NCBI GenBank assembly: GCA_964544395.1
Contig: CAZJAO010000004.1
Location: 1 to 47,204 of the forward strand
Direction: 5' to 3'
Length of the DNA stretch: 47,204 nt
DNA from: Candidatus Woesearchaeota archaeon
GTDB lineage: Archaea > Nanobdellota > Nanobdellia > Pacearchaeales > GW2011-AR1
Shown: piece after piece, positions 3,013 through 43,717 of the stretch
How the letters are laid out: every line of letters starts with the position of its first letter
Numbering within the stretch: the first letter of the stretch is position 1
Program-made: the position numbers and the translations under genes
The notes under the pieces: model-generated
Told to the model about the DNA's origin: nothing
Database searches by the model: none
What the model saw: the letters and a program-made list of their open reading frames with translations, nothing else

Positions 3013-3014
3013 AA

Positions 3015-11032: not shown

Positions 11033-11062
11033 TTTTATTAGAATAGATTATCCTTTAAAAGA

Positions 11063-11974
11063 TTATCCAGTCTTGAATTCCACAACATCCAAATCCTTCA
11101 GCTTATGCTTTAGTCCCACTTTTTGTCCCGGGAATTTGCTCGAAGGTCCCCAGATTTTTATCTCTTTTATCTTATTTGAAAATCCCCTCAAAACTTTTTT
11201 TGCAACCTCATTTACCGAGGCATCTGGAAAGAGGATCACAGGCTTATCTCTGTCCGTTTCTTTTCCGGGCTCTTTAGTATAAACTCTAATCTTGCCAAAG
11301 CTCTGAAAGATTTTGTTTTTTAATTCGTCAAGATTTTCTTTATTTTTAGAAGAAATTAAAACAAAATTATACCTCTTGCTTTGAAGAGTGGCTTTAGCCC
11401 TTCTTATTTCATTTTCGTTAAATGAATCAATTTTATTAAAAATAATAATTTGTTTTCCCCTCGCTTTATCAAGAATCTTTTTTATTTTATTTATCTCTTC
11501 TAAATTTGTAATCATAATCAGTATTAAATCCGCATTGTTCACTAGGCCTCGGTCATAATATTCCGATTCTATTGCAGGGATTTCTATTACCTGAATTTTC
11601 GTTCCATAATAATCCATAATCCCTACCATTGGTTTCTTAGTTGTGAAAGCGTAATCTCCAACTGCCGATTTAACATTTGTTAAGGTATTAAGAAGAGAAG
11701 ATTTACCTGAATTTGCAAATCCAATAATTACTAATTGCATGTCCTCTTTTTTTATTCCAACTCTACTCCCTCCTTTTTTTACTTTATCTTTTTCCTGCTT
11801 TTCCTTAAGTTTTATGAGCCTTTTTTTTAATTCTGCAACAAAGTTCTCACTTGATTTGTGCTTTGGGGCAGTTCTTATCATTTCTTCCAAACCGACTATT
11901 CTTTCTTCCAATGTCTGTGCTGCAAAATATTTCTTTTCGGCAGCAGCGTACTCTGGACCTGCATTGATTGGCAT
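11063..11974 (-). CDS. DRG/OBG-family GTPase with TGS domain (shortened)
   Basis: MPINA...PKHK N-terminus, G1 GFANSGKS, G2 YAFTT, G4 NKID, C-terminal TGS (IWGPSSKFPGQKVG...DLDVVEF). Confidence 0.85.
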   Translation of the reverse strand: MPINAGPEYAAAEKKYFAAQTLEERIVGLEEMIRTAPKHKSSENFVAELKKRLIKLKEKQEKDKVKKGGSRVGIKKEDMQLVIIGFANSGKSSLLNTLTNVKSAVGDYAFTTKKPMVGIMDYYGTKIQVIEIPAIESEYYDRGLVNNADLILIMITNLEEINKIKKILDKARGKQIIIFNKIDSFNENEIRRAKATLQSKRYNFVLISSKNKENLDELKNKIFQSFGKIRVYTKEPGKETDRDKPVILFPDASVNEVAKKVLRGFSNKIKEIKIWGPSSKFPGQKVGLKHKLKDLDVVEFKTG

Positions 11975-15294: not shown

Positions 15295-15946
15295 AGACCT
15301 CGGCCCTTTTACCGATTATTTCTGTTAGTTCTTCTATTGAAGCACTGAATAATTCCCTCAATGTTTTGAAATGTGAAAGCAATTTTTTTGCTGTTTTGGG
15401 ACCAATGCCCGGAAACCCCTCGAGAATAAACTGCATTCTTTCTTTTTTATTCAAATTCTTTTTAGATACGTTCAACGATAATTCTTTTTTTTGCCTTTTA
15501 GACAAAACGGAAATAAATCTCGCAGTATCCTCTGAATCTTTTGTGAAAATTATCGGAGTTTTGTAACTGAGAATTATGGACAACAAAAAACCCCTTATTG
15601 CATTTGGGTGAATTCCGGTATCTGGAACCCCCTTAGCGTATAGTTCATGTTCGTCTATTCCCTCTATTATTAAAATGCGATTTTTATACTGCTGCAACCC
15701 CTGCAACTGATTTGTGAGCCTTTTGTTTAACATGGAAGAAATGAAATCTTGAACAGTTTTTCTTTCAATCGCTACATCATTAACAATATAGTCTGCTACT
15801 TTCAATTCTTTTATTTCGACTTCAATACCCAATTCAATAAGCTGTGAGTAAACTAATGAATTTTTCTCCCTATAATCCATAATCACTTTTGGTTTCTTTT
15901 CTTTTTTCTCACGGACTTTTGAAAATATACCCAATATTGGCTTCAT
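15269..15946 (-). CDS. xpf: ERCC4/XPF structure-specific nuclease with HhH2 (Hef nuclease half)
   Basis: MDYRE, ADY, IERKTVQDF, IIEG nuclease motifs; EGFPGIGPKTAKKLL HhH. Confidence 0.9.
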   Translation of the reverse strand: MKPILGIFSKVREKKEKKPKVIMDYREKNSLVYSQLIELGIEVEIKELKVADYIVNDVAIERKTVQDFISSMLNKRLTNQLQGLQQYKNRILIIEGIDEHELYAKGVPDTGIHPNAIRGFLLSIILSYKTPIIFTKDSEDTARFISVLSKRQKKELSLNVSKKNLNKKERMQFILEGFPGIGPKTAKKLLSHFKTLRELFSASIEELTEIIGKRAEVFRLLEEHY

Positions 15947-15981
15947 TCTTTATTTAGAATTAATTAATTTAAAAGTTTTTT

Positions 15982-17025
15982 TTATTCATGCAAAACACCA
16001 TTGGCTTTACTCTCTTCTATTCCAGAGTTTGTTATTTCGATAAAATCTGCTTTTCCTATGATATTCTTCATGCTTTTTGCTCCGAGATAAGTCATTCCAG
16101 AGGACAAGGCACCCACATATTTTTTTATAATCGGAGAAATCGAACCCTTGTAAGGGGAGAGGGTCTGTTCGCCCTCCACGCTTATAATTTCCTTATCTTC
16201 TTCGCCATCCAATTCGGCCTTTTTTACAGAAACATCATAACTTGCAGAACCACGATACATTTTGAACATTTTTCCGTTCTTTACAATTATTTCCCCCGGA
16301 CTCTCATCTGTTCCCGAAAAAAGATAGCCAGACATTATAGTATCTGCACCTGCGCCAAGAGCCTTAACAACATCTGCCGGTTTTTTTATTCCCCCATCAG
16401 CACAAATTGGAATTTCGCCTTTAGTGGCTTCATAGACGTCCATTATTGCAGTCAATTGGGGAATTCCTGCCCCCGCCATTAATCTTGTCGTGCACAAAGA
16501 GCCCGGTCCAATTCCGACTTTAACAGCATCAGCACCTTTGCTCAAGAAATATTCAGCAGCATCTTTTGTTGCTATATTCCCTGCCATTACATCAATATTA
16601 GGATAATTTTCTTTTAGATAATCAAGTGTTTTTCCAGCATATTTTGAATGTCCGTGTGCGATATCAATAACGAGAATATTTACTCCTGCATTAACAAGCG
16701 CGTCTACCCTTTCCTTTACGTCCTTTACTCCGATAGATGCTGCAGCAATTAACCCCTGCTCTCTGATTTCCTTGACTTGTTTTGCTTGTTCTTCAATTGT
16801 CATAAATCGATGAAGGACTCCAAGGCCACCAAGTTTTCCGAGGGCAATGGCCATTTTTGATTCACAAATTGTGTCCATATTTGCTGCAATAATCGGAATG
16901 TCAATGGAATAATTTCTTGTAACTCTGGTTTTCAGCTCTACATCTCTTCTTGATGCTATCTTGTTATATTTTGGAATAATGAGAACATCATCAAAAGACA
17001 AACCTCTTTCAATAATTCTAGCCAT
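15982..17025 (-). CDS. IMPDH/GMP reductase family enzyme lacking CBS domains, probably a GMP reductase
   Basis: LSFDDVLIIP, ANMD, DIAHGHS, GIGPGSLCTTR (catalytic Cys), ADGGIK, YRGSAS, VEG. Confidence 0.85.
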   Translation of the reverse strand: MARIIERGLSFDDVLIIPKYNKIASRRDVELKTRVTRNYSIDIPIIAANMDTICESKMAIALGKLGGLGVLHRFMTIEEQAKQVKEIREQGLIAAASIGVKDVKERVDALVNAGVNILVIDIAHGHSKYAGKTLDYLKENYPNIDVMAGNIATKDAAEYFLSKGADAVKVGIGPGSLCTTRLMAGAGIPQLTAIMDVYEATKGEIPICADGGIKKPADVVKALGAGADTIMSGYLFSGTDESPGEIIVKNGKMFKMYRGSASYDVSVKKAELDGEEDKEIISVEGEQTLSPYKGSISPIIKKYVGALSSGMTYLGAKSMKNIIGKADFIEITNSGIEESKANGVLHE

Positions 17026-17049
17026 GTCTCACTTCATAGAAATTATTTT

Positions 17050-18618
17050 TTATAAAGATTCTTGTGATATTCTATCATCAAGAGTCTTTTGGAAATCTAA
17101 AGTTCCATTTGACAAATCTCTTTTAATATCGCTTATTGCAGAACGCATTTTCCTCTCCTTGCTTCTTGATACATAATAAAATGATTCATCACGGGTCTTT
17201 TTTGTAATAAGAACTATTAATTTTCCTTTTTTCAGACGAGCAGTTCTTCCCGCTCTCTGGATTGCTCTTATTGCAGATGCAACTGGTTCGTAGAATACCA
17301 CCAAGTTAACTTCTGGGATATCAAGTCCTTCCTCTCCGATGGATGTAGCACATAAAACATTTGAATCTCCCGCTGCGAAATCATCAATTGTTTGTTTCTG
17401 TTCTTTTTGGCTTAACCCCGTATCTTTCTTTTTTAATTGTCCAACAAAAATCTTTGCTTTTATTCCGGGGAGTTTATTCAAACTCTTTGAGATTATAACT
17501 GCGGTATCCCTATATTGTGAAAAAACAATTGCTTTCAGGGGAACATCGCTCTGAAGTTCGTTTTCAATAATATCTGTAAGCACTGCAATTTTTGGATGTT
17601 CCATGTTTCTTGCAATAAGGTAATTTGATTTTACAAATGCTAAATTGAAATCGGGTCTCTTGACCAGCTGCTGGACAGCCTTGCTTTTTAGCTTTGCAGA
17701 TTGATCCAGCAAATCTTTAAGATAATTATTGAATCCCACTAATGTTTGTGTTTCAAGCAATTCTAATGCGTGCTGGAGTTTGATTGCATTCGCACATGCA
17801 GACATCCCTTTGAATAAATTGAAATTCTGATTTCCCCTAGAAAGCATATGACCGAGTTTGGCCTGAAGCTTTATCAGATTTACTTTAGTCGGAACTTCGT
17901 ACAATAAACTTCGAGCTTTCAATTCATCGATGTATAAATCATGGATGCTTTTCATAATTCCTCTTATTTCCTGAAATTCTGGAGGGAGCTCCAGTTCAAC
18001 TTTTTCAAATTCCAATTCTTGAACGTTGGGTATTATATCTGGAGAATCCCTTGTTCGTAATTCGACTTCTTCTATAGAAAGATTCCTACAAATCTCTTTT
18101 ATTTTCTGATTATCACTTCCTGGAGAAGCGGTCAATCCCAGGATTCTCGGATGAATGGAGTTTTTTATATAAGTACTTGCAATATAGTTATAATCATAAT
18201 TCTTAAGGCATCGGTGAGCTTCATCTTCAACGAGCAAGCAGACATTCTTTAAATCATATAGGTGATTTTTCAAATCGTTTGCAATGCATTGAGGTGTTGA
18301 GAAGATTATATCTGCGGTTTTCCATATTTCTCTTCTTTTTTCTGCTGTAACATTTCCCGTAAATAATTGCAAATCACCAAATAATTCTGGAAGATGCTTG
18401 TTGAAAAAAACAAGGTGTTGTTCCGCCAATGGTTTTGTAGGAGCAAGAAAAAGAATTTTTTCTCCGGGAAATTTCTGACTTCGGTCAATAGCCAGCATTA
18501 ATGCAATCAAAGTCTTTCCAAGCCCCGTTGGAAGCACAACTAGACAATTCTTTTCTTTACATGTTTCAAAAATTTTTTGCTGATAATCTCGTGGCGAGAT
18601 TTCTTTTAGAAAATCCAT
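17050..18618 (-). CDS. hef: Hef/FANCM-type SF2 helicase (no fused nuclease)
   Basis: PRDYQ, LPTGLGKT, DEAHR, LTASPG, VFSQYRDT, TSIGEEGLDIP, QRAGRTAR; ATG at 18618. Confidence 0.92.
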   Translation of the reverse strand: MDFLKEISPRDYQQKIFETCKEKNCLVVLPTGLGKTLIALMLAIDRSQKFPGEKILFLAPTKPLAEQHLVFFNKHLPELFGDLQLFTGNVTAEKRREIWKTADIIFSTPQCIANDLKNHLYDLKNVCLLVEDEAHRCLKNYDYNYIASTYIKNSIHPRILGLTASPGSDNQKIKEICRNLSIEEVELRTRDSPDIIPNVQELEFEKVELELPPEFQEIRGIMKSIHDLYIDELKARSLLYEVPTKVNLIKLQAKLGHMLSRGNQNFNLFKGMSACANAIKLQHALELLETQTLVGFNNYLKDLLDQSAKLKSKAVQQLVKRPDFNLAFVKSNYLIARNMEHPKIAVLTDIIENELQSDVPLKAIVFSQYRDTAVIISKSLNKLPGIKAKIFVGQLKKKDTGLSQKEQKQTIDDFAAGDSNVLCATSIGEEGLDIPEVNLVVFYEPVASAIRAIQRAGRTARLKKGKLIVLITKKTRDESFYYVSRSKERKMRSAISDIKRDLSNGTLDFQKTLDDRISQESL

Positions 18619-21960: not shown

Positions 21961-24249
21961 ATGCAATTTAAAGAGGGAGCTGCACTTTATTCTTACGAGA
22001 CCCAAAGAGAAGGGGGTGAAGATGTTCTATATGTAAATTACATGGGGGCTCCTTTTGTTCCAAGCATCGCTGATTCTCCTGAAGTTATGGAAAGAACTAT
22101 TGACGCTTTGATAGAAAATCCTAATGTTTCGAGAATTGTTTTTGTTCAGCAGAAAAATTACAATTATGATTTTCATGAAACATCGCTTCTTCTTGAAATT
22201 TCTCAATTATATGTTTACTTGATAAGGCAGGAAAGAATTTTATCAAAGGAAAAACTTGTGACTGGCTTTGACCAATTTTTTACTCAGAGATATAACGAGA
22301 TATTTTCTATTCTTTACTCTCTAAAGAGAGACCCCGTGGCTTCCTATCTTAATTTAAGAAATATTTTTGTTGAAGCGAGAATTTTTCTAGAGAAGCTTAG
22401 CCCCCAATATAAGTCAGACCAAAGCAATTACATAAGGTTGATTGAAAAAGTTTTTACCATGCTACAGGGCACGAAACTGATACAAGGACTCTTGAATTTT
22501 CTTCCAGATTATCAAAAAGGTGATAGAGAAATATATCATAGAATTTTTGAACCGGATGTAATTCCTAATTTTACTTTTACGCGACTTGTTTCTGAAATTC
22601 CGCAGGATGTGGAGATAGTTAATCAATATGAAATTTCAGGCGATGATTATGACAAATCGGTAGTTACTATATTGAGAAAAAGAAACGAATCAAAACTCCT
22701 TTATCATTTACTGCCCCCTGAGAATGTTCTTGATGAAGAACAGAATCTGCTTCTTAATCTTGCAAAGAATGTGCTTATCGAACATCAGCCAAAAGCGGAA
22801 GAATTTACAGATACCGAAAGAACAAGGCAAGTTTTCTTTAATATCGCAAAAGATTTACTTCAAGACTTAGCTCAGACAAAAGGCATAAATCTTAATTATT
22901 CTGATTTAAACAAATTATCCAAGATTCTAGTAAGACATACTATTGGGTTTGGGTTGATTGAGGTTTTATTGCAAGATAAAAATATTCAAGATATTGTTCT
23001 TAATGCGCCAATTCCAACAACTAGCATTTTCCTCAGACATGAAGTTTATGATGAATGTTATACAAATATTCTCCCTAGTCAGGAAGATGTAGACTCCTGG
23101 GCGGCAAAATTCAGAATAATTTCAGGGCGACCATTAGATGAAGCAAATCCTGTTCTTGATACTCAATTGGAAATTGACAAGATAAGTGCAAGAATTGCCA
23201 TTGTACAACAACCTCTTTCTCCCAATGGACTTGCTTATGCAATCAGAAGACATAGAGAAGAGCCATGGACCTTTTCATTATTTATTAAAAATAAGATGAT
23301 GAATCCCCTTTCTGCTGGATTAATGAGCTTTCTAGTTGATGGGGGAAGAACTATTTTAATTGCAGGAACTAGAAGTTCTGGAAAAACCTCTTTGCTTGGA
23401 GCTTTGATGCTTGAGATTTTACCTAGAACAAGAATAATTGTTGTTGAAGATACGCTTGAATTGCCTTTTGAATCTCTGAAGAAACTTAATTATGATATTC
23501 TGCAAATGAAAGTTCGTTCAGCATTGTTGAAAACCACCAATGAAATCTCTGCTGAAGATGGAATTAGAACAAGTCTGAGATTAGGGGACAGCAGTTTAAT
23601 TATTGGTGAAGTAAGAAGTGCTGAAGCAAAAGCTCTGTATGAAGCAATGAGAGTTGGTGCTTTGGCAAATACTGTAGCAGGAACAATTCACGGCGCTTCA
23701 CCATATGCTGTTTTCGACAGAGTTGTAAATGACTTAGAAGTTCCTGCAACTAGTTTCAAAGCGACAGATATTATTGCTGTTGCAAACCCCATTAAATCTC
23801 CTGATGGCCTTCATTCATGGAAGAGACTTTTGCAGATTACAGAGGTCAGGAAACACTGGCAGAAAGATCCTCTTGAAGAAAATGGTTTCAGCGATTTGGT
23901 AAAATACAATGTTGAAAAAGATACTCTTGAACCCAGCGAAGATTTGATTAATGGGGATAGCGAGGTTATCAAAGCTGTTGCAGAGAACGTTAGAGGGTGG
24001 GCAGGAAATTGGGATGCTGTTTATGATAATATTTTATTAAGAGCAAAAATAAAAGAAGAAATTGTAAAGACTGCAGAAAAAACCGGAAGACCTGAATTGC
24101 TGGAAGCAGCTTTTAATGTTTCTGCAAACCAAGAATTCCATTCAATTTCTGATACTGTCCGAGAAGAAATCGGTCTACCGCTTTCAAACAGAGTTTTTCC
24201 TGCTTGGCAGAAATGGCTTAATCAGGAAATAAAGAAAAAGAAATTATGA
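21961..24249 (+). CDS. Type IV pilus/secretion ATPase (VirB11/GspE/TadA-like), large form
   Basis: Walker A GTRSSGKT, Asp box VVEDTLEL, Walker B IIGEVRSAEA, His box GTIHG; long N-terminal extension. Confidence 0.92.
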   Translation: MQFKEGAALYSYETQREGGEDVLYVNYMGAPFVPSIADSPEVMERTIDALIENPNVSRIVFVQQKNYNYDFHETSLLLEISQLYVYLIRQERILSKEKLVTGFDQFFTQRYNEIFSILYSLKRDPVASYLNLRNIFVEARIFLEKLSPQYKSDQSNYIRLIEKVFTMLQGTKLIQGLLNFLPDYQKGDREIYHRIFEPDVIPNFTFTRLVSEIPQDVEIVNQYEISGDDYDKSVVTILRKRNESKLLYHLLPPENVLDEEQNLLLNLAKNVLIEHQPKAEEFTDTERTRQVFFNIAKDLLQDLAQTKGINLNYSDLNKLSKILVRHTIGFGLIEVLLQDKNIQDIVLNAPIPTTSIFLRHEVYDECYTNILPSQEDVDSWAAKFRIISGRPLDEANPVLDTQLEIDKISARIAIVQQPLSPNGLAYAIRRHREEPWTFSLFIKNKMMNPLSAGLMSFLVDGGRTILIAGTRSSGKTSLLGALMLEILPRTRIIVVEDTLELPFESLKKLNYDILQMKVRSALLKTTNEISAEDGIRTSLRLGDSSLIIGEVRSAEAKALYEAMRVGALANTVAGTIHGASPYAVFDRVVNDLEVPATSFKATDIIAVANPIKSPDGLHSWKRLLQITEVRKHWQKDPLEENGFSDLVKYNVEKDTLEPSEDLINGDSEVIKAVAENVRGWAGNWDAVYDNILLRAKIKEEIVKTAEKTGRPELLEAAFNVSANQEFHSISDTVREEIGLPLSNRVFPAWQKWLNQEIKKKKL

Positions 24250-24886: not shown

Positions 24887-27073
24887 ATGCCTCCTTATCA
24901 ACAGCCCCCAATTCCGCCAGATGTTAATGAAATTCTAAAGAAATACGGCAACAAAATCGAAAGTCAGATTAATACTACTACGGTTCAGAATAATAGTGGA
25001 TACAGCCAAGCCTATTCCACGTTCAAAGAAGAAATGGCTCCTGCATGGGTACGATATGAAAAGTTGTGTCATAGCATCGGTAATATACTCAAGTTAAAAA
25101 TTTCTCAGAAAGATGAATTAAAAGTTAAGAGAAATATTGAAATTGCTCATCTTGACATTGAACCATGGCAGGCCGTGACTTTAAGCGCAGTAACTTTTTT
25201 CTTTGTTTTTATAATTGGACTTTTTATCACGGTTTCTGTTTATGTTTTCACCGGAAACGTGCCGGTTCTCTTTTTTATCATGCTAGTTGTTTCATCCCTG
25301 TTTTTGTATAATTATATCAGCGGCTTTCCAGAGAGATTTGCTAATCAGTGGAGATTGAAAGCATCTTCGCAAATGGTGCCCGCAATTTTGTATTTAGTAG
25401 TCTACATGAGACATACCTCTAATCTTGAAAGAGCCATTTCCTTTGCATCTGAACATCTGCAATATCCCCTTGCATTAGATTTCAAAAAAATATTTTATGA
25501 TGTTGAAATTGGAAAGTTCTCAACAATTAAGGACAGTCTCGATTATTACCTTGATGGCTGGAGAGATTATTCTCCGGAATTTATAGAATCATTTCACTTA
25601 ATTGAAAGCAGTTTGTTTGAACCAGATGACACGACCAGAGTTACAACTCTTGAAAAAGCATTGCAAGTAATTTTAGATGGTGTTTATGACAAGATGCTGA
25701 AATTTGTTCATGATGTCCGAAGTCCCATTCAAAGCACCTACATGCTCGGAACAACTTTGCCTGTTTTGGGAATGGCATTGCTCCCTCTTGCATCCTTGAT
25801 GGTTGGGAATTTGCTTAATGCGACCGACGTTTTTATTTTATACGATTTGATTATTCCTTTTCTTGCATTTTTCCTGATGAATAAATATTTACTATTAAGA
25901 CCGGGCGGTTATGGAGATACAAGCTTGCTTGAAAGAAATCCCCTTTATGGTGAATACAAAAGCAAGAAACCATATTACAAAGCGTTTCTCATATGCCTTC
26001 CTCTTTTCATCCTTGGATTTTTGCCTTTGATATGGGGTTTCACGCCTTTGCCGCAACTTTTAGGATTGCCATTAGATCCGACTTTTGCGCAATTAGGTTT
26101 GGGCATTTTTGGAAATAATGGTTTCTTTGGCTTTATTCCTTCAACAAGCGGTATAAAAGGACCCTTTGGTGCTGGAGCTTTGATACTTAGTTTATTTGTT
26201 CCGTTGGGACTTGCTTTATTCTTTTCAATGGCATACAAAGAGAAAACAAAAAATCTTATCAAGGAAAGAGACAATACAAAAGAACTTGAAGCAGAATTTA
26301 ATAATTCCTTATTCCAACTTGGAAACCGAATCGGCAACGGAACTCCTCCAGAATTAGTTTTTGGGAGAGTTGCAGAATCTACGACTGGATTGAAGACCTC
26401 TGATTTTTTCAAGAAAGTTAATTATAATATTCAGCAAGGTGGAATGAGTGTTGAGAATGCTATTTTTGATCCAACACGCGGAGCAATAAATTCTTACCCC
26501 TCAGACCTGATAGCTACAAGCATGAGAATACTTGTAGAAGCAGCAAAGAAAGGATTGAAAATTGCTGCAATTAGCATTATGAGCATTTCTGAATACGTGA
26601 AGAATATTCAAAAGATAGGAGATAGGCTGAGAGATTTGCTTGCAGAGATAATTTCAGATATGAAAAGCAACATGACTTTCCTTGCACCCCTTCTTGCAGG
26701 AGTTGTTGTCGGACTTGCAGCTATGATAACTACAATATTAACGAAATTGAATTTGGCTACTGCCGCAGGAGGAAGCGCCGCTGCTACAGGACTTGGAAAT
26801 ATTGGAGACATACTCTCCTTATTTGATTTGACAAATATGATTCCCCCTTATTATTTGCAAATCGCAATTGGAGTTTATCTCGTGGAGATTATATTTATCC
26901 TTACCGGAACTCTGGTAACAATTGAGTCTGGAGTAGATAAACTTGAGAAAGCTAATACTACGGGCAAGAATCTCAAGAGAGGAATCACTCTTTATTTTGT
27001 AGTTGCATTAATTTCTACTCTAGCATTGTTCCTTTTATCGTCACTTGTACTTGGCGGCCTGGGAACAAGCTAA
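24887..27073 (+). CDS. Pilus platform protein (TadB/TadC/ArlJ-like, two T2SSF-type domains)
   Basis: ILYLVVYMRHTSNLERAI and FQLGNRIGNGTPPELVF cytoplasmic domains, each followed by TM clusters; downstream of the ATPase. Confidence 0.85.
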   Translation: MPPYQQPPIPPDVNEILKKYGNKIESQINTTTVQNNSGYSQAYSTFKEEMAPAWVRYEKLCHSIGNILKLKISQKDELKVKRNIEIAHLDIEPWQAVTLSAVTFFFVFIIGLFITVSVYVFTGNVPVLFFIMLVVSSLFLYNYISGFPERFANQWRLKASSQMVPAILYLVVYMRHTSNLERAISFASEHLQYPLALDFKKIFYDVEIGKFSTIKDSLDYYLDGWRDYSPEFIESFHLIESSLFEPDDTTRVTTLEKALQVILDGVYDKMLKFVHDVRSPIQSTYMLGTTLPVLGMALLPLASLMVGNLLNATDVFILYDLIIPFLAFFLMNKYLLLRPGGYGDTSLLERNPLYGEYKSKKPYYKAFLICLPLFILGFLPLIWGFTPLPQLLGLPLDPTFAQLGLGIFGNNGFFGFIPSTSGIKGPFGAGALILSLFVPLGLALFFSMAYKEKTKNLIKERDNTKELEAEFNNSLFQLGNRIGNGTPPELVFGRVAESTTGLKTSDFFKKVNYNIQQGGMSVENAIFDPTRGAINSYPSDLIATSMRILVEAAKKGLKIAAISIMSISEYVKNIQKIGDRLRDLLAEIISDMKSNMTFLAPLLAGVVVGLAAMITTILTKLNLATAAGGSAAATGLGNIGDILSLFDLTNMIPPYYLQIAIGVYLVEIIFILTGTLVTIESGVDKLEKANTTGKNLKRGITLYFVVALISTLALFLLSSLVLGGLGTS

Positions 27074-27281: not shown

Positions 27282-27449
27282 ATGTCTGAGCTTACAATTT
27301 CGGAACTAATAAAAATTATTCTTGGTGTAATTGTAGTTGTTGCAGTTATTCTTGCCTTGTATTTCTTTTTCAGAAATCAGGTAATAAGTTTCTTTAGCGG
27401 ATTTGGAGGAAATGCGTCTAAAATAATCCTATCTTTAATTGGAAAATGA
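27282..27449 (+). CDS. 55-aa pilin-like peptide without a basic leader (not in ORF track)
   Basis: MSELTISELIKIILGVIVVVAVILALYFFFRNQVISFFSGFGGNASKIILSLIGK*; abuts the upstream stop and overlaps the next start (ATGA). Confidence 0.7.
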   Translation: MSELTISELIKIILGVIVVVAVILALYFFFRNQVISFFSGFGGNASKIILSLIGK

Positions 27450-27976
27450 ACAAACGCAGAACCGGAGGTTCCGCACTTCCATTGATAAAAAATAAACGCG
27501 GATTTTTGTTGGGTGAAGAAACAGTAAAAATTATTATTGCAATAATAGCAATTCTTTTTCTTATTTTATTCATCGTTTATTTATACAATAACTTTACACA
27601 AAATAAAGATTTGACAAATGCAAAAAGTTCTCTTACTGATTTAATCAGCCAAATAAATTCAGGGGCAACTCAAGCTAACATTTACAATCCTAGCGGGTGG
27701 CTTTTATCTTCTTTTACTTCTTCCCCCGTGATGCCAAAAATGTGCACTACGAATAAGTGGATAAATTGTATCTGCTTATGCATAAAACCAGCTGGCTCGG
27801 TTCATCAGCCGCAGACAGCTTGTGACACTTCTGGGATCTGCCAGCAATCTGACTTCTCTCTGGTTGGAGATGCGACATTTATAGTAACCTGGCAAACAAA
27901 TAGCATAGAAATTTCAAATCCTCCTTTGCTTCTTTCAATCAATCAACAAACTAAAACTATTTCGAAAAGCACCTGA
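27446..27976 (+). CDS. Pilin-like protein with class III signal, 6 Cys
   Basis: KNKRG|FLLGEETVKIIIAIIAILFLILFIVYL. Confidence 0.8.
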   Translation: MNKRRTGGSALPLIKNKRGFLLGEETVKIIIAIIAILFLILFIVYLYNNFTQNKDLTNAKSSLTDLISQINSGATQANIYNPSGWLLSSFTSSPVMPKMCTTNKWINCICLCIKPAGSVHQPQTACDTSGICQQSDFSLVGDATFIVTWQTNSIEISNPPLLLSINQQTKTISKST

Positions 27977-28077
27977 TGGATTTTGAAACTTTGATAAAAT
28001 ATTTAATCTGGGTGGTATTTTTTGTTATTGTATTCGCAGGATTATATTTTATGTTTAGAAAATTTGGGTTAATCTAA
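27976..28077 (+). CDS. 33-aa single-TM peptide (not in ORF track)
   Basis: MDFETLIKYLIWVVFFVIVFAGLYFMFRKFGLI*; start and stop both overlap neighbours (TGATG, TAATG). Confidence 0.65.
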   Translation: MDFETLIKYLIWVVFFVIVFAGLYFMFRKFGLI

Positions 28078-28835
28078 TGAACAAAAAAGGAGAGATGACT
28101 ACCGAGCAAATTGTAATGATAATAGTTTTAATTGTAAGTTTTATTGTAATCTTATATTTTCTTCTCAGGTTGAATCTTGGCGGAACGACTAATGATGAAA
28201 TCTGCCACAATTCGGTTGTGCTTAAATCAAAAAGTGCAGGACTTGTTGGGGGATTAACCTGCAAAACTGATTATATTTGCATTTCAGGCGGAGGAACCTG
28301 TGCAAATCTTAATCCCACAACCACTGTAAATGTTGATGCTACAAACAAAGATGAAATAATGAAAGCCATAGCAGACCAAATGTCTAATTGCTGGTTCACA
28401 TTTGGTGAAGGAAATGCAAATTATCTTGGATTGGCAGAAAAATCTGTGCTTACAAAAACTACCTGCGCTTTATGTTCAACGATTGAATTTGATGACAAAA
28501 TCTTAAGCAAAAATTATGGCATAACTTATAGTGATTTTTATAATTATTTAATGAACACACACAAGGATAGCAGTCAAACGTACCTGAATTATCTTTTCGG
28601 TGTTAGTGATGTAAGTTCACTTGAAGCAAAAAATGGGGTCACAAATAAAGTAGTAAGCAGTACTCTTAATAATAATCTTATAACAAATACACAATATGGA
28701 ATTTTAACTGGATTTATTCAAGGATTTGCCGGAGGCTTACTTGGAAATACCTATCAAATTTATCCTACTTATTTACCGATTAATCAGGTGTCTTCACAGT
28801 TGCAATGTGCTGATTTTGTTACGACAGCATCTTAA
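28077..28835 (+). CDS. Pilin-like protein with class III signal, 8 Cys
   Basis: MNKKG|EMTTEQIVMIIVLIVSFIVILYFL. Confidence 0.82.
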   Translation: MNKKGEMTTEQIVMIIVLIVSFIVILYFLLRLNLGGTTNDEICHNSVVLKSKSAGLVGGLTCKTDYICISGGGTCANLNPTTTVNVDATNKDEIMKAIADQMSNCWFTFGEGNANYLGLAEKSVLTKTTCALCSTIEFDDKILSKNYGITYSDFYNYLMNTHKDSSQTYLNYLFGVSDVSSLEAKNGVTNKVVSSTLNNNLITNTQYGILTGFIQGFAGGLLGNTYQIYPTYLPINQVSSQLQCADFVTTAS

Positions 28836-28866
28836 CATTTATTAATCTCTATAATATTCTTTTTTC

Positions 28867-29274
28867 ATGATGAATAAGAGGGGCATCACATTACTTCTAG
28901 AAAATATTATTTTCATAATTCTCAATCTCATTTTTATTGCAATTCTAATCTTTTTTTTAATTTCGAAATCCGGAAGTGCAGGAGTTCTTGAAGAAAAGTA
29001 TGCAAAAGAAATCGCTCTCGTTCTTGATTCTGCCAAACCGGGGATGATGATTAACCTAAATATGGCAGATGCAATATCCACTGCTGAACAAAACCTCGGA
29101 AAAAATAATGTGAATGACAGCATTGTAACTATTTCCCAAAATGTTGTAACTGTAAAGCTAAGCGAACAGGGGGGGTATTCCTATTCTTTCTTTAATGACA
29201 TAAAGATTTCAAATCATTATCTCGATAAAACCGGCAATCAATATCTGTTCTTTATAGGTGATTACAATGGTTAG
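28867..29274 (+). CDS. Pilin-like protein with class III signal
   Basis: MMNKRG|ITLLLENIIFIILNLIFIAILIFFL. Confidence 0.8.
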   Translation: MMNKRGITLLLENIIFIILNLIFIAILIFFLISKSGSAGVLEEKYAKEIALVLDSAKPGMMINLNMADAISTAEQNLGKNNVNDSIVTISQNVVTVKLSEQGGYSYSFFNDIKISNHYLDKTGNQYLFFIGDYNG

Positions 29275-30460
29275 AACCAATCCCTTATCCAAAAAGAAAG
29301 GTGCAGACCAAATACTTACTGTTTATTGGTTTGTAATAATCTTCATCGTGGCTGGTGCGGTGGTTTATATGGCGTATCTATTTTATGGTTCTCCTTTTGA
29401 TGCGCGAAATATTGAAGGCAGTCTTTTGGGCAATCAAATTGCAAATTGCTTGACAAATAAAGGATATATTATTGACCAAGCTTTCTTACCTGACTTTCAA
29501 AATAATTTTCTTCAGGATTGCCATTTGAATTTCAGTACGGAAGATTTTTCGGACTGGAAAACTAATACCCAATATTATGCTCAAGTGGTGGTTTACAAAT
29601 TTAATTCTAATGCACAGCAGCAATCTTATGGTGAGTCGGATAGTTCTATTTCGAGCAATATTGGCAATCAAGTGTTAACTGTGTCTGCGGGAAACATAAA
29701 TTTGAAGACTGCCTGGGAACTTATAACTCCCTCAACTGGATTTTTGGGCCTGAATTTGAATAAAAGAAATGTTAACACTATTGTAATTCATGATACTGAA
29801 GGGCCAACGGCTCTTGGGGCAATCCAAGCAATATCGACTGCAGATTTGAGCATACATTATATTATTGATAGAGATGGAACGATTATTTCTCCAGATAATG
29901 TTAATCAGTTTGCTCCTGCACAATATGCTAATGCACTTGTTCCAGAAAGTACTATTGCACAAGATGCTGGATGTTACGACACACGATCAAAAACTCAATG
30001 GCCTATTTGTTCTGCAACCTGTACTGACTCAAATGGTCTAATTGCGACAAGCTGCCAAAAGTTGAGCAATCCGCCTCCGAATGAATTTTGCTGTTTGGAA
30101 TTTAATGTAAAATCCATCGGAATAGAACTAGTTAATTTAGGGAATGAGCCTTACCCTGATACGCAAATAAAATCTCTTATAAATCTGGTTTCAGACATTT
30201 CCTCAAGGTATAATATTCCTTTAGACCGGGCACACATCGTCGGACATTATCAGACTTCAAGTTACAAGGTTGACCCGGGAACACAATTTCCTTGGGACAC
30301 TTTCATACAAGAATTAACATCAAGGGGGGCGGTAGCTATCGCTTCTTCAACTGCAAATACGGAGCAGCAGCAAAGAAACATTTATGCCCTTGATAAGAGT
30401 GGAAATCAATATGTTATCCAAATTTTAACTCTCGTAGGCAAAACTGAAAAAAATGTTTAA
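29267..30460 (+). CDS. Pilin-like protein (class III signal) with an inserted N-acetylmuramoyl-L-alanine amidase (Amidase_2/AmpD-like) domain
   Basis: SKKKG|ADQILTVYWFVIIFIVAG signal; amidase motifs TIVIHDT, SIHYIIDRDG, NVKSIGIE, YPDTQIKSL..L, IVGH, KVDPG.QFPW; ATG at 29267. Confidence 0.85.
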   Translation: MVRTNPLSKKKGADQILTVYWFVIIFIVAGAVVYMAYLFYGSPFDARNIEGSLLGNQIANCLTNKGYIIDQAFLPDFQNNFLQDCHLNFSTEDFSDWKTNTQYYAQVVVYKFNSNAQQQSYGESDSSISSNIGNQVLTVSAGNINLKTAWELITPSTGFLGLNLNKRNVNTIVIHDTEGPTALGAIQAISTADLSIHYIIDRDGTIISPDNVNQFAPAQYANALVPESTIAQDAGCYDTRSKTQWPICSATCTDSNGLIATSCQKLSNPPPNEFCCLEFNVKSIGIELVNLGNEPYPDTQIKSLINLVSDISSRYNIPLDRAHIVGHYQTSSYKVDPGTQFPWDTFIQELTSRGAVAIASSTANTEQQQRNIYALDKSGNQYVIQILTLVGKTEKNV

Positions 30461-30914
30461 TCAAAACAAAAGAGCACAAATAGCAGAGACAACAACATGG
30501 ATAGTTGCGACTTTGATAATTTTCGTTATACTCATAGTCACGCTCTTTATAGCTTCCCTTATGGGACATACAAAAAATCTTCCTCAACCGTTGGGGGCAG
30601 ATATATTTGCAGATAAATCTCTGACCGCATATTTATTGACAAAAGGCACCAATGGGATCCCGATTTATACCACAATTAGTGCCGAAGGGCAATTGAATAG
30701 TTTCAATGGAAATCTTGCCAAGCAGATATTTCTTAATTTCTATAGCGGATTTTATCGTGATAGACTATATTTGGGGGTTCTTGGACAGGATAACGATTAT
30801 TTTAACTCCGGAGCAATTTCTCATAAAGTATTTGAGCCAGGATTTGTTTTCTATTCGATTAATGTAGGCAATAATAAATTTGTTCAATTTACAGCATTAC
30901 CATGGCCACAATAA
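30453..30914 (+). CDS. Pilin-like protein with class III signal
   Basis: MFNQNKRA|QIAETTTWIVATLIIFVILIV. Confidence 0.8.
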   Translation: MFNQNKRAQIAETTTWIVATLIIFVILIVTLFIASLMGHTKNLPQPLGADIFADKSLTAYLLTKGTNGIPIYTTISAEGQLNSFNGNLAKQIFLNFYSGFYRDRLYLGVLGQDNDYFNSGAISHKVFEPGFVFYSINVGNNKFVQFTALPWPQ

Positions 30915-31255
30915 ACAAAAGAGGAGATGTTTCAATAACAATATTAGTAATTGGAGTTTTTGCTATCTGCACAATTGCAATTGTAACTTTTCTTCTATAT
31001 AATCAAACAATTCAGACAGGTTTTGTTAATGTTGGTGTTTTTGAAAATTTGTCAGCACAAGTAGAAAATTATTATTTCTATATTAATTCGGGATTATCTC
31101 CGCAACAAGCTGCAAATGATATTGGTGCACAATTGCAAGGCAATCAATTAATTTTTAATACCGAACAAAAAGGAGATCCTGGTGTTTTTGGATTTATAAG
31201 CAGCAATTCTAATACGATTGTCTCGGTGAAATACATATACGATCTAAGTAAATAA
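30902..31255 (+). CDS. Pilin-like protein with class III signal
   Basis: MATINKRG|DVSITILVIGVFAICTIAIVTF. Confidence 0.78.
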   Translation: MATINKRGDVSITILVIGVFAICTIAIVTFLLYNQTIQTGFVNVGVFENLSAQVENYYFYINSGLSPQQAANDIGAQLQGNQLIFNTEQKGDPGVFGFISSNSNTIVSVKYIYDLSK

Positions 31256-31289
31256 AAAGTTTTATAAACAAATTAAACTTAATCAAAGA

Positions 31290-31742
31290 ATGAATAAGAG
31301 AGGTCAAGAATTAAGCACCAGCACGATAATTCTCATTATTTTAGGTGTAATAATTCTTGTAGTTCTTGTTATCGGTTTCACAATAGGCTGGAACAAAATT
31401 ATTCCTTATGTTTCTCAAAGCAATATAAATACTGTTTCGACACAATGCCTTTCTGCATGTTCTACAGCAAGTGTTTACGATTTTTGCTCGAGAACATTTG
31501 ACTTAAATTCTGGTACTACTACAATCAGAAACTCAACATGCAATTATCTCGCTCAAAAGCAGACTCAATATGGAATAACTCCATGCACCGCGATTCCATG
31601 TAGCAATATTCTCTTCTTTGATAATACCAACAAGCAGTATAAAACAATTGCTGATTTGAGCAACAGCCAGTGCGCAGCCAATTCTGGAAAGACACTTCAG
31701 GTTTTGATTGGAGATACTGTACAGAGCATTACCTGCCCATAA
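31290..31742 (+). CDS. Pilin-like protein with class III signal, 8 Cys
   Basis: MNKRG|QELSTSTIILIILGVIILVVLVIGF. Confidence 0.82.
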   Translation: MNKRGQELSTSTIILIILGVIILVVLVIGFTIGWNKIIPYVSQSNINTVSTQCLSACSTASVYDFCSRTFDLNSGTTTIRNSTCNYLAQKQTQYGITPCTAIPCSNILFFDNTNKQYKTIADLSNSQCAANSGKTLQVLIGDTVQSITCP

Positions 31743-31893: not shown

Positions 31894-32739
31894 ATGATTG
31901 AGGTGATTTTCCTTTTAGCACTTGCATTTATCTGGATTTTATTTGCAGCAATATCTGATGTAAGAACAACTGAAATTCCCAACTGGCTAAATTTTTCTTT
32001 GATAATCTTTGCTTTGGGTTTTAGATTTTTCTATTCTTTATTTTCTGCAGGAAATTTCAGTTTTTTTTATCAAGGGCTGATTGGGACAGCAATTTTCTTT
32101 GCTCTTGGAACTGGATTATACTACGGCCGGGCATTTGCAGGTGGAGATGCAAAACTCATGATTGCTCTTGGTCCAATACTGTCTTTTTCAACCAATTTTT
32201 TAACGAATCTTGAAATTGCAATCTCTTTCTTATTTTTATTTTTAGTTTCAGGTTCTGCTTATAGCATTTTGGCAAGCACTTATTTTGCATTCAAGAATCA
32301 TAAAAATTTCAAGAAGGAGTTTAAAAATGCTTACAGGACGAATTTGAAATTTACTATCATTATAATGGCTCTGGGAATATTGATAATGGTTGGGGGAATT
32401 ATTTTTAATGGATTGCTATTATATTTGGGAATCATAATTTTCATTCTTCCTTTACTATATCTTTATACAAAATCGGTTGATGAAACGATGAGAAAGAGAA
32501 TAAGCCCTAAAGATTTAATGGAAGGGGATTGGCTATATCGCGATGTGAAGGTGGGAAATAAATCTATAAAAGCAAATTGGGGCGGTCTGACTCAAGAAGA
32601 CATCAATCTTCTTAAAAAGAAAAACGAATATGTTTTGATAAAAAAAGGAATAGCTTTCGGACCGGTTTTTCTTATTGGCTTTCTCCTACTGATTTATTTT
32701 TATTTGATTAATACCGGTTTATGGAATTCTCTTTGGTAA
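31894..32739 (+). CDS. Prepilin/class III signal peptidase (A24, PibD/FlaK-like)
   Basis: Two catalytic Asp motifs ISDVRTTEIPN and FAGGDAKL; C-terminal DLMEGDW...IAFGPVF domain. Confidence 0.9.
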   Translation: MIEVIFLLALAFIWILFAAISDVRTTEIPNWLNFSLIIFALGFRFFYSLFSAGNFSFFYQGLIGTAIFFALGTGLYYGRAFAGGDAKLMIALGPILSFSTNFLTNLEIAISFLFLFLVSGSAYSILASTYFAFKNHKNFKKEFKNAYRTNLKFTIIIMALGILIMVGGIIFNGLLLYLGIIIFILPLLYLYTKSVDETMRKRISPKDLMEGDWLYRDVKVGNKSIKANWGGLTQEDINLLKKKNEYVLIKKGIAFGPVFLIGFLLLIYFYLINTGLWNSLW

Positions 32740-36416: not shown

Positions 36417-36980
36417 TTATTTTCCTTTCCGATAATGCACCGATTCTTCTGGTTTTGTATAAGAGTTTATTTCTTCTGAAGAAAACCAGAATTCAATTTC
36501 TTTTGGCGCATCATCTTTATTGTCCGTTGTATGAATTATTGTTAAGTTTGGCCGATTGGATTTATTTGCTAATTCAAAAGTATCATGTGAGAAATCTCCC
36601 CGGATAGTTCCTGGAGGGGCTTCATCAATATTAGTGGGGCCTGTTAGTTTCTTTACAGTGTGAACCGCATTATGGCCTTCAAGGACTATTGCGATTATTG
36701 GAGAAATCTGCATATCTTCAATCAAACTTTCCACAATTCCTCCCCCAACTTTTATTGGGTCTGTATCACTTGGGAGATTTAGTTTTTTCTTGTAAAGTTC
36801 CCCTTTATCTTTTAACCATTTTTCATCCTTAAAATAATGCTTTTCCAAGATTTCTCTTTGAGCTCTAATCATTTTAATTGCGACAATCTTCATTCCGACT
36901 TTTTCAAATCTCTGTATTATTTCACCGACAATACCCCTTAGTATACCATCTGGTTTTATCAGCACCAATGTTCTTTCCAT
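36417..36980 (-). CDS. ndk: Nucleoside-diphosphate kinase
   Basis: ERTLVLIKPDG, PGTIRGDF, catalytic His in IIHTTD. Confidence 0.92.
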   Translation of the reverse strand: MERTLVLIKPDGILRGIVGEIIQRFEKVGMKIVAIKMIRAQREILEKHYFKDEKWLKDKGELYKKKLNLPSDTDPIKVGGGIVESLIEDMQISPIIAIVLEGHNAVHTVKKLTGPTNIDEAPPGTIRGDFSHDTFELANKSNRPNLTIIHTTDNKDDAPKEIEFWFSSEEINSYTKPEESVHYRKGK

Positions 36981-41838: not shown

Positions 41839-41968
41839 AGCCCCATAGTACAGCGGTCAAGTATGCAAGCCTTTGAAGCTGAGGAGAACCAAGTTTCTCC
41901 CTATACTAACCTCTCCTTGTGAGAGTCAAAGAAAGCTTGTGACCCAGGTTCGAATCCTGGTGGGGCTA
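41839..41968 (+). tRNA. tRNA-Gln(UUG) with a 57-nt canonical intron (41877-41933)
   Basis: AGCCCCA/TGGGGCT acceptor, CAAGC-CTTTGA|intron|A-GCTTG anticodon arm, CCAGG-TTCGAAT-CCTGG T-arm; CTTT/AAAG central helix with two 3-nt bulges (BHB-like). Confidence 0.9.
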
Positions 41969-42005: not shown

Positions 42006-42641
42006 ATGAAACTTCTTTTGACTTCTGCAGGAATAACCAATAAAAGTCTTGAGAACGCTTTAAGGAAATTAGTCAAAACGGAAATAAAAATTGCTTTTAT
42101 TCCTACTGCTGCAAATGAAAATGGTGGAGATAAGGATTGGCTTAATGAAAATCTAAATGAATGCAGAAAACTAGGCCATGTTGAAGTAGCCGATATTTCT
42201 TTGGATAAAAAAGAATGGTTGCCGGAGTTGGAGAGAGCAAATGTAATTCTTGTTGGCGGAGGAGATACTGCTTATTTGATGAATTGGATTTTGAAATCTG
42301 GATTAGCTAATGAATTTCCAAGATTACTAAAAAGAAGAGCTTATGTCGGAATTAGTGCCGGAAGTCTTGTACTGAGCAAAGAGATACAGGGGAAGTCTGA
42401 GCGTTTGTATGGAGATGAAACAGAAAATCCGCCGAATGGATTAGGTTATATAAATTTTCAAATCAGGCCTCATTTGAATTCGCCTTATTTCCCAAAAATT
42501 AGAGATAAGAATTTAAGAGAACTTTCAAAAAATTTGGTTGGAGATTTGTATGCCCTAGATGATAACTCCGGAGTATTATATGACGATGGGAAAATAGAAG
42601 TTATCTCTGAAGGTCATTGGATAAAATATTCTAAATTATGA
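42006..42641 (+). CDS. Peptidase S51 (peptidase E-like)
   Basis: IAFIPTA, VGGGDT, nucleophile elbow GISAGS, PH in QIRPHLN. Confidence 0.88.
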   Translation: MKLLLTSAGITNKSLENALRKLVKTEIKIAFIPTAANENGGDKDWLNENLNECRKLGHVEVADISLDKKEWLPELERANVILVGGGDTAYLMNWILKSGLANEFPRLLKRRAYVGISAGSLVLSKEIQGKSERLYGDETENPPNGLGYINFQIRPHLNSPYFPKIRDKNLRELSKNLVGDLYALDDNSGVLYDDGKIEVISEGHWIKYSKL

Positions 42642-43267: not shown

Positions 43268-43717
43268 TTACTTCAATACAATTTTATTTTTTTCTATTTC
43301 AATCTCTCTTCTTTTCCATGGAACATTCATGACGATGAAAGATACGACCATTCCGAAATCAACTACAAGACAATATTTGCAGAAAGCATGAAGAACAAAT
43401 TTTTGCAAATAAAGGAAATAGAATGAAATCATCGCTCCAAAAAATACTCCCAGATTGATTATTGATTTTTTATGTTTATGAGGCTTTCTGATATGAGAAT
43501 AAACCATAAGAGACATTAAGCTGAATATTATAATTCCAAAATAACTGTTTTCTATTCCAAAGGTTTTGGCATAAACTGATGTTTGAACTGTATTGCAACC
43601 TTCAAGCTGTGTGCAAATAAGTGGCAGGGGGATAACTGAGAGAAGAATCGAGCATATTAATGCAATTATGAAAATAGTAAGAAGTATTCTATATTTTAGG
43701 TCCCGTATAATCTTCAT
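43268..43717 (-). CDS. Vitamin K epoxide reductase (VKOR) family disulfide-forming protein
   Basis: CTQLEGCNTVQTS loop cysteines, FGIENSYFG, active-site FCKYC. Confidence 0.88.
   Translation of the reverse strand: MKIIRDLKYRILLTIFIIALICSILLSVIPLPLICTQLEGCNTVQTSVYAKTFGIENSYFGIIIFSLMSLMVYSHIRKPHKHKKSIINLGVFFGAMISFYFLYLQKFVLHAFCKYCLVVDFGMVVSFIVMNVPWKRREIEIEKNKIVLK

Follow-up and report, generated by a model that had tools for sequence, protein, structure and literature searches.

What is a murein amidase domain doing in the pilus locus of an archaeon? The question is raised by a gene at 29267-30460 on the forward strand of contig CAZJAO010000004.1 (assembly GCA_964544395.1, Candidatus Woesearchaeota archaeon), of which we have analysed positions 1 to 47,204, the whole stretch being referred to here as the window. 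The gene codes for a protein of 397 amino acids (aa) plus the stop codon, and the protein is a prepilin-like scaffold with an inserted Amidase_2 domain. All features discussed are on the forward strand unless otherwise stated. A first-pass annotation, made from the sequence alone, had read the protein as an archaeal pilin with an intact peptidoglycan amidase domain. We think it fairly probable that the product is a processed prepilin-like subunit which displays a catalytically competent murein amidase, stabilised by disulfides, on the outside of the cell, either along a type IV-like filament or at its end, and that the enzyme acts there on bacterial peptidoglycan.

The match to Amidase_2 (PF01510) is at 29762-30280 (aa 166-338) and is far beyond chance, with an E value of 1.5e-21, a score of 77.6 bits against a gathering score of 26, and profile positions 2-130 of 131 covered. 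The domain is intact as the first-pass annotation had claimed, and every motif position given there is exact. Conservation was counted over 54 aligned relatives, which are 39-75% identical to the window protein. His175 of the IVIH motif (29789-29791), the predicted first zinc ligand, is present in 53 of them, the remaining row having a gap; the predicted second ligand, His327 of IVGH (30245-30247), is likewise present in 53, as is the predicted third, the Asp at 30272. The latter is part of Lys334-Val-Asp336 in the KVDPG motif (30266-30274), the Lys being found in 49/54 and replaced by Arg in 3. Glu287 of SIGIE (30125-30127), the predicted catalytic residue, is invariant, and so is Tyr198 of SIHY (29858-29860), which is next to His197 at 29855. 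We take His175, His327 and Asp336 to be the zinc ligands and Glu287 to be catalytic from the established work on AmpD and T7 lysozyme, and Tyr198 is presumably the conserved Tyr of the Amidase_2 fold. Judged by these alignments, the His/His/Asp ligand set and the catalytic Glu, Lys and Tyr of Amidase_2 all appear to be retained. Between SIHY and SIGIE there is a Cys-rich loop (29972-30094, aa 236-276), 30-96 residues long across the relatives, with Cys236, 248, 275 and 276 in 51/54.

An AlphaFold2 model on the family alignment has a mean pLDDT of 85.6 and a pTM of 0.74, with pLDDT values of 92-97 over most of aa 171-350. The comparison of a predicted structure with AmpD, which the first-pass annotation had proposed, gave a positive result: in a Foldseek search of the PDB the model matches AmpD with E=1.4e-6 and TM 0.64, the clostridial endolysin amidases LysCS and LysC with TM 0.65-0.71, and also PlyL, PlyG and peptidoglycan-recognition proteins (PGRPs). 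The domain is thus predicted to have the alpha/beta amidase fold.

Which of the known amidases is it nearest to? A profile of 54 family members matches AmpDh2 (9.8e-19), AmiD (1.3e-12), AmpDh3 (1.4e-11) and AmpD (3.3e-7), and the motifs IVxH-T, SIGIE, IIGH and K-x-DPG-x-FPW are aligned in these matches (to IVLH, IIGH and VDPG in AmpDh2 and AmiD). The earlier description of the domain as AmpD-type is right for family and motif order, but the sequence is nearer to the periplasmic AmpDh2 and AmiD than to the cytoplasmic AmpD. The NCBIfam equivalog for AmpD (NF008758, the cytoplasmic 1,6-anhydro-MurNAc-L-Ala amidase) scores 45.9 bits against a cut-off of 143, over aa 280-352 only, and as the cut-off is not reached the name AmpD is wrong for this protein, and over-specific as the JGI label of its relatives. 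The nearest relatives outside the present architecture, at E values of about 1e-10, are Chloroflexi proteins that join a polysaccharide deacetylase to an Amidase_2 domain (PF01522 plus PF01510; P0065 and similar, P0065-P0072) and a few amidase-only proteins such as P0064. The Chloroflexi proteins have a related Cys pattern and a loop similar to the Cys-rich loop described above. Within Amidase_2 the catalytic domain is unexceptional.

What then is the rest of the protein? About 62 cluster representatives share the N-terminal domain, amidase and tail (35-73% identity, mostly at least 97% coverage; from NCBI, JGI, ENA and Logan assemblies). An exhaustive homolog search over 1.84 billion representatives gave in addition over 100 shorter proteins, of about 160-180 aa, in which the query is matched once over some 110-130 residues at the start and again at the tail. 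These short forms start KKG-x-DK-xx-SVYWF…FYGxP…C…C…GNxNLK and end …RSFYxLD..NQY.V.I…RKTEKN, the same as the amidase form. A short-form profile retrieves at least 728 clusters, and the best 120 of the 728 are 159-186 aa long, have no Pfam domain, and if named are "hypothetical protein [Candidatus Pacearchaeota archaeon]".

Alignment of both forms puts the insertion between Lys147 (of GNINLK) and about residue 371. The N-terminal scaffold part is at 29267-29707 (aa 1-147, to GNINLK), is homologous to the amidase-less family of about 165-175 aa, and has conserved Cys61 and Cys85 and strands at 103-111 and 134-142. The inserted segment is at 29708-30376 (aa 148-370), in place of a Cys-Cys loop of about 17 residues in the short forms. 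The C-terminal scaffold part is at 30377-30457 (aa 371-397), with a beta-hairpin (368-375, 381-390) and a near-invariant GK.EKN at its end, the tail as a whole reading RNIYALDK...EKNV at aa 370-397. In the model the scaffold runs in the order helix 11-40, helix 47-62, two strands, insert and beta-hairpin, and apart from the insert this succession recurs when the short form P0237 is modelled. The only low-confidence stretches flanking the amidase domain, aa 157-162 and 360-366, are at its two junctions and in the model would fit flexible linkers.

Two of the short forms, P0237 and P0320, fill the operon slot (in loci L005 and L006) that is held here by the amidase gene, and it is the existence of such amidase-less positional orthologs that allows the boundaries to be defined. 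Comparison of the two forms supports a true insertion of the amidase into a pre-existing small pilin-like protein, in the loop between the second and third strands. That the domain had been inserted into a pilin was the suggestion of the first-pass annotation, together with an alignment to orthologous pilins to find the boundaries, and the insertion has been borne out for a pilin-like protein, with short forms in the same slot placing the junctions at Lys147 and about 371. In a neighbour-joining tree of the scaffold residues the best split contains all 54 amidase forms and 1 of the 50 short forms; on bootstrapping, the exact amidase-only split was recovered in 0/40 and the mean best overlap was 0.91. 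One main insertion event followed by vertical descent is likely from these data.

Some further observations on the family may be given here. The last residues of the protein (30440-30457, aa 392-397), (V/I)(G/R)K-x-EKN, hardly vary, be it in amidase or in short forms (Lys392, Lys395 and Asn396), a hint that some other component may dock there through a conserved contact. P0062, a partial sequence of the family (39% identity over 79% coverage), has the NCBI label "Patescibacteria group bacterium"; every other named member is archaeal, and the label is probably a binning error and not a sign of a bacterial copy. A scan of GTDB genomes with amidase-motif patterns gave, among the matches listed, bacterial AmpD genes and one archaeal locus (L007), and is uninformative on distribution.

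We now turn to the start of the gene, and to whether it codes for a prepilin. The open reading frame (ORF) ends at 30460 and has candidate starts at GTG 29258 and ATG 29267. The ATG is the likelier start because of a Shine-Dalgarno-like motif, AGGTGAT, read from the sequence at 29256-29262, 4 nt 5' of the ATG, and because the ATG overlaps the upstream stop codon (ATGGTTAG). The overlap is with the stop of the upstream gene at 29272-29274, and the downstream gene begins 8 nt before the end of the amidase gene, overlaps on both sides being typical of a tightly coupled operon. The protein then starts with a basic leader ending in KKKG (29267-29302, aa 1-12), a putative class III signal with predicted cleavage after Gly12, which is kept in 50/54 relatives. 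It is followed by ADQ and a hydrophobic N-terminal helix (29303-29386, aa 13-40), the KKKGADQ motif being at aa 9-15, and in the model there is a kink at the conserved FYGxP between this helix and the next. The leader/helix junction reads KKKG/ADQILTVYWFVIIFIVAGAVVYMAYLF, with the basic leader, the Gly at -1 and the hydrophobic stretch of about 20 residues that characterise class III signals.

Similar N-termini were sought throughout the window with a pattern of our own (a regular expression, not FlaFind): [KR][GA], then up to 9 residues, then a 20-residue uncharged hydrophobic stretch. Eight of the 127 window ORFs of at least 50 aa have such an N-terminus, and seven of the eight are consecutive genes at 27446-31742. 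By coordinates the amidase gene is the fourth of these seven, which we call prepilin-like genes. The others, with a slash at the leader/helix junction, are gene 1 at 27446-27976 (…NKRG/FLLGEE…), gene 2 at 28077-28835 (MNKKG/EMTTEQ…), gene 3 at 28867-29274 (MMNKRG/ITLLLE…), gene 5 at 30453-30914 (…NKRA/QIAETTTW…), gene 6 at 30902-31255 (…INKRG/DVSIT…) and gene 7 at 31290-31742 (MNKRG/QELSTS…). Genes 3 and 5 are the immediate neighbours of the amidase gene, and gene 3 has a counterpart of 133-135 aa directly upstream in all related loci.

The seven genes are flanked by a FlaI/TadA-type ATPase and a TadC-like membrane protein on one side, and by an A24 prepilin peptidase on the other. The full order is a 762-aa T2SSE ATPase for secretion or assembly (21961-24249; Pfam T2SSE, with TadA and FlaI as top NCBIfam matches, both under their cut-offs), a 191-aa ORF, a 728-aa polytopic membrane protein (24887-27073; a weak PilC/TadC-like T2SSF match, kept in related loci), a tiny hydrophobic ORF, the seven prepilin-like genes, and Peptidase_A24 (31894-32739; E=1.7e-11, with both expected Asp sites visible, AISD22 and AGGD85). 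That the gene lies inside a pilin cluster had been claimed from the start, and the seven consecutive class-III-like N-termini with the prepilin peptidase nearby bear this out. Four loci with the amidase form (L001-L004) and two with the short form (L005 and L006) share this arrangement, the conserved order being ATPase, then proteins of about 248 and 133 aa, the scaffold gene and three further small genes. The A24 peptidase follows the small genes in five of the six, none being called in L006, and then come HIT, EF-1-beta and RPA-like genes in all six, with RadA too wherever the contig reaches.

There are a few features of these loci to be recorded for themselves. Tiny and very hydrophobic ORFs of 50-66 aa, one or two in number, are conserved after the TadC-like gene and ahead of prepilin-like gene 1 (window 27282-27449; L001 7731-8096; L005 6836-7195), and one may speculate that they code for Flp-like small subunits and are candidates for the major filament protein. 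L005 has a MazE/PemK toxin-antitoxin pair at 10987-11545 within the pilus operon, 5' of the A24 peptidase, and at 15331-17817 a RadA gene with an intein that bears a LAGLIDADG domain (828 aa).

Is the association of amidase and pilus apparatus confined to this one gene? In P0063, P0116 and P0154 the N-terminus (…KKAQIAATLTWIVAFVIIFF…) resembles that of prepilin-like gene 5 of the window, at 30453-30914 (…NKRAQIAETTTWIVATLIIF…), with a BLASTP E value of 2e-6 over leader and helix, and the C-terminal part is a homologous Amidase_2 domain, 32% identical to the window domain and with loops of the same kinds. Contig L087 has, in succession, the ortholog of the 133-aa gene (1033-1434), a short 175-aa scaffold member (1453-1980) and then a 413-aa amidase protein (1982-3223), which is the counterpart of gene 5 with a C-terminal amidase. 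By these alignments the amidase can ride on either of two adjacent pilin-like genes. Comparable N-termini with a C-terminal Amidase_2 are also present in P0167, P0070, P0191 and P0207. As the L087 fusion differs from that in the window, and other proteins of similar N-terminus carry Amidase_2, we would argue that selection acts on the amidase being on this apparatus, and not on one particular fusion.

Other members of the scaffold family have other inserts, P0198 (384 aa) and P0185 (254 aa) in an earlier loop (after about aa 70-95) and P0097 (367 aa) at the amidase site. The P0097 insert contains Cys, and that of P0198 has the motifs ES…GVLQ…GYNGWG in the order seen in lytic transglycosylases. 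Pfam and PDB sequence searches with these inserts gave nothing, and a homolog search with the P0198 insert gave 5 close matches with no domains, and the resemblance to transglycosylases is a tentative lead.

How good is the case for a pilin? The predicted layout is that of a pilin: the N-terminal helix is long, and the globular part that follows is small and contains beta strands, four of them in the window protein. The gene is encoded together with an assembly ATPase, a platform protein and a prepilin peptidase. The conserved Cys pairs, together with a homologue of vitamin K epoxide reductase (VKOR) encoded at 43268-43717 on the reverse strand of the window (E=2.8e-18), support an extracellular, oxidising location for the amidase protein; the numerous Cys-rich extracellular proteins encoded in the pilus locus may rely on the VKOR homologue for disulfide formation. 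The first-pass annotation spoke of a minor pilin, and this label seems reasonable, given that the head is bulky, that each locus has a single copy and that conservation is high. A likeness between the tail of the protein and the end of its upstream neighbour (…YLDKTGNQYLFFI) was also considered as a case of paralogy and rejected, as hhalign matches the N-terminal signal only (probability 24%).

There are however several points that weigh against a catalytically competent amidase on a pilin. Pfam and NCBIfam scans matched no pilin model in the protein or its six neighbours, and the model of the amidase-less ortholog P0237 (AlphaFold2, pLDDT 79) has no significant Foldseek match in the PDB, the best having an E value of 0.029 (ribosomal proteins) and no pilin being among the 50 best listed. 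The missing match of profile or structure weakens the claim, although archaeal pilins are very divergent, and unrecognisable signal-peptide proteins, the "dark matter" of DPANN pilus loci, have been argued to be divergent pilins (Makarova et al., PMC6393860). Directly after the putative cleavage site the protein has charged residues (A-D-Q/K), an uncommon feature among well-studied archaeal pilins, and a head of 220 residues may fit poorly into a filament shaft. The protein contains no cell-wall-binding domain. Lastly, directly after the catalytic Glu there is a second variable loop, of 12-53 residues, and the window copy has 12 residues (30128-30163, aa 288-299) from the Glu to the conserved Gln300, as do P0003, P0007 and P0057 (4/54 in all); the other relatives have 31-53, with two conserved Cys and a Trp, and these four are without the 20-40 residues of Cys- and Trp-containing loop. 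An inactivating deletion unique to the window copy had been considered and is rejected as such, the short loop being present in four.

In the reading that we favour, the neighbouring A24 peptidase would remove the leader and the hydrophobic helix would dock the protein into the filament, the bulk of the head making a low copy number or a place at the tip most plausible. The disulfide-stabilised amidase would then be held outside the cell, where it could bind bacterial peptidoglycan and cleave the MurNAc-L-Ala bond. The archaeon would thereby be anchored, with the bacterial wall locally opened, or stem peptides released as food, or both. Such a reading suggests pili used to grip, open or feed on bacteria, and it is in keeping with published peptidoglycan-degrading genes of Pacearchaeota and Woesearchaeota and with peptidoglycan as their proposed source of amino acids (PMC8204110, PMC9723730, PMC11537232). 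A bolder version, which we put forward tentatively as a possibility short of an even chance, is that a subclade of Pacearchaeota has turned a core type IV pilus subunit into a lytic "grappling hook" for bacteria, with the amidase head, likely at the tip, as an exchangeable cassette. The idea of a cassette comes from hints that the amidase is found in a loop of one pilin or at the end of its neighbour, with unrelated inserts in the same or another loop.

The protein could instead be a membrane-anchored ectoenzyme and no filament subunit, with its helix as a signal anchor or as part of a pseudopilin-like platform, and would then scavenge soluble muropeptides or wall debris for peptides and amino sugars. 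The lack of a pilin fold or profile match and the bulky inserted head would both be accounted for; a protein with no wall-binding module would suit small soluble substrates, as for AmpD and AmiD; and the peptidoglycan of dead bacteria has been proposed as an amino-acid source for Pacearchaeota (PMC11537232). However the gene is fixed in the pilus operon with start and stop overlaps on both sides, its [KR]G leader is common to six neighbours beside a prepilin peptidase, and the alternative fusion in L087 is again on a pilin-like gene of the same operon, and for these reasons we regard an ectoenzyme as unlikely, while still the most serious competitor. A head that only binds bacterial walls, in the manner of a PGRP-like adhesin without catalysis, would agree with the non-catalytic PGRPs among the Foldseek matches and with adhesion being the usual role of modular pilins (PMC8179133). 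It would not be expected to keep the three metal ligands with Glu287, Lys334 and Tyr198, yet these are retained in 49-54 of the 54, even where identity falls to about 39%, and the best matches are to active amidases. Non-catalytic PGRPs typically lack one of the zinc ligands. We consider a head of this kind quite improbable.

Still less probable, in our estimate, is an action on the archaeon's own envelope, for example to open the wall for passage of the pilus, or on a substrate other than murein, such as an amide-linked glycopeptide of the kind of a host's pseudomurein-like polymer. Bacterial trans-envelope machines do often carry dedicated wall hydrolases, such as FlgJ and VirB1, and most members of the scaffold family are without the amidase, which is therefore an accessory domain. 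However the amidase domain is closest to murein-specific enzymes, and known pseudomurein-cleaving enzymes have a different fold. As to the archaeon's own envelope, no murein synthesis genes were seen in the window, and archaea are normally without murein (PMC8204110). An artefact, be it a chimeric assembly or a mis-called ORF, would be at odds with some 62 independent cluster representatives of the same architecture from four data sources, with the identical synteny of L001-L004, and with the continuous frame and the Shine-Dalgarno-like motif before the start; a chimeric assembly at the domain junctions is ruled out by the representatives and the synteny, and we give the artefact as a whole next to no weight.

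With regard to the host, the window is archaeal by gene content, with Orc1/Cdc6, both PolD subunits, RadA, an RPA-like protein, aIF2-alpha and SRP54, and its GC content ranges over 28-38%. The named relatives of the protein come from metagenome-assembled genomes of "Candidatus Pacearchaeota archaeon" or "Candidatus Nanoarchaeia archaeon" (e.g. MCL5730012.1, MDE1848426.1, MFZ1970767.1 and MDD5700260.1), and NCBI taxonomy has Pacearchaeota in the kingdom Nanobdellati (= DPANN). The first reading had inferred a DPANN archaeon without being told the source, and marker genes, relatives and taxonomic placement agree with it.

Some other genes of the window also deserve mention. A tRNA of 130 nt at 41839-41968 (Rfam, 53.4 bits) was not called by ARAGORN, and its length implies an intron of about 55-60 nt, which is an archaeal trait. 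The nucleoside diphosphate kinase ORF at 36417-36980 on the reverse strand is 187 aa long, with the NDK match in two stretches, as against 149-151 aa in the L001 and L003 orthologs, which points to an extension at the N-terminus, an inserted stretch or a start that was set wrongly. A Peptidase_S51 gene (dipeptidase E/cyanophycinase family) at 42006-42641 has an E value of 2.5e-23, and its product could have a role in the use of scavenged peptides.

We found no description of a pilin-amidase fusion in the literature searched, which included full-text searches on Pacearchaeota with pili and amidase and on class III signal peptide with amidase, and the first-pass annotation was likewise aware of none in archaea. 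The claim of novelty stands for the pilin context; for DPANN as such it has to be reduced, as peptidoglycan hydrolases of DPANN and other archaea have been reported (PMC8204110, PMC9723730, PMC12352652). In public databases the family proteins are named only "N-acetylmuramoyl-L-alanine amidase" or "AmpD", and such automatic annotation hides the pilin context. The gene bears on the hosts and lifestyles of Pacearchaeota and Woesearchaeota and on whether any DPANN archaea live on bacteria, and it offers a concrete, conserved and easily expressed candidate for DPANN-bacterium interaction that makes the question directly testable. The substrate preference of the amidase, for example for a type of peptide stem, could point to the partner bacteria. 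If the grappling-hook reading is true, this would be the first molecular device for episymbiosis or predation of an archaeon on a bacterium, and the first enzymatic archaeal pilin.

It remains to compare the protein with known systems. The periplasmic AmpDh2, AmiD and AmpDh3 (of Pseudomonas and E. coli; PDB 4bj4, 2bh7 and 4bxd) and the cytoplasmic AmpD (1j3g, 2y28) are of the same Pfam family and fold, with aligned His/Glu/His/Lys-x-Asp motifs, and by the profile values given above (AmpDh2 9.8e-19, AmpD 3.3e-7) the extracytoplasmic enzymes are the nearest in sequence. In contrast to AmpDh2, AmiD and AmpD, the archaeal domain is embedded in a prepilin-like protein and has the Cys-rich loop of 30-96 residues. 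AmiD and AmpDh2 have a lipoprotein anchor and a peptidoglycan-binding domain, and the archaeal protein has neither. The tail-spike protein gp5 of phage T4 contains a lysozyme domain, and is a virion-associated peptidoglycan hydrolase. It too has a wall-cutting domain in a structural subunit of an envelope-contacting device, but the analogy is one of working only: the carriers are not homologous, the enzyme is a lysozyme and not an amidase, and the carrier is viral and not cellular.

Archaea that have no murein of their own, prominently Nanoarchaeota/DPANN, also encode murein-degrading domains in secreted peptidoglycan hydrolases and, in Pacearchaeota and Woesearchaeota, in large lytic-transglycosylase proteins, and these have been interpreted as tools against bacteria or for attachment to them (PMC12352652, PMC8204110, PMC9723730). 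For archaeal peptidoglycan hydrolases the killing of bacteria has been shown experimentally (PMC12352652); the large lytic-transglycosylase proteins are found in the smallest genomes of Pacearchaeota and Woesearchaeota (PMC8204110), and Woesearchaeota have been described as "vampiristic" (PMC9723730). These are however Sec- or Tat-secreted modular enzymes with wall-binding domains, or giant SLT proteins, and a description of any of them as a pilin is lacking. As the survey in PMC12352652 counted only proteins with a wall-binding domain, and reports Sec or Tat alone among the signals recognised, it would have passed over the amidase-pilin family. Pilins that bear an amidase or have to do with peptidoglycan are not mentioned in the surveys of predicted divergent pilins in DPANN by Makarova et al (PMC6393860, PMC4858521); the pilins that they predict are uncharacterised small signal-peptide proteins whose genes adjoin those of a FlaI-like ATPase and TadC, and the scaffold family fits this description.

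The closest parallel in design is with the modular type IV pilins of bacteria, such as PilB (vWA) and PilC (lectin) of Streptococcus sanguinis (PMC8179133, PMC9934059), in which a functional module is likewise carried on a small pilin module, with the gene in a pilus operon. The catalogue in PMC8179133 notes predicted enzyme modules (peptidase), and with its supplements mentions no amidase or peptidoglycan module. The bacterial proteins have the N-methylation motif IPR012902 and a C-terminal graft, whereas the archaeal protein has an archaeal-type leader, with the module inside the globular domain, and in the Pfam and NCBIfam scans it gave no match to a motif of the IPR012902 type. A modular pilin consists of a scaffold and an extra module, and the amidase-less orthologs show that here too the scaffold stands alone. 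The protein thus works like a modular pilin yet is outside the operational definition of PMC8179133. We regard it as an archaeal, enzyme-bearing modular pilin of insertion type and not as a new category of system, and with it the modular pilin principle would reach beyond bacteria into archaea, and beyond adhesion modules to an enzyme inside the pilin fold.

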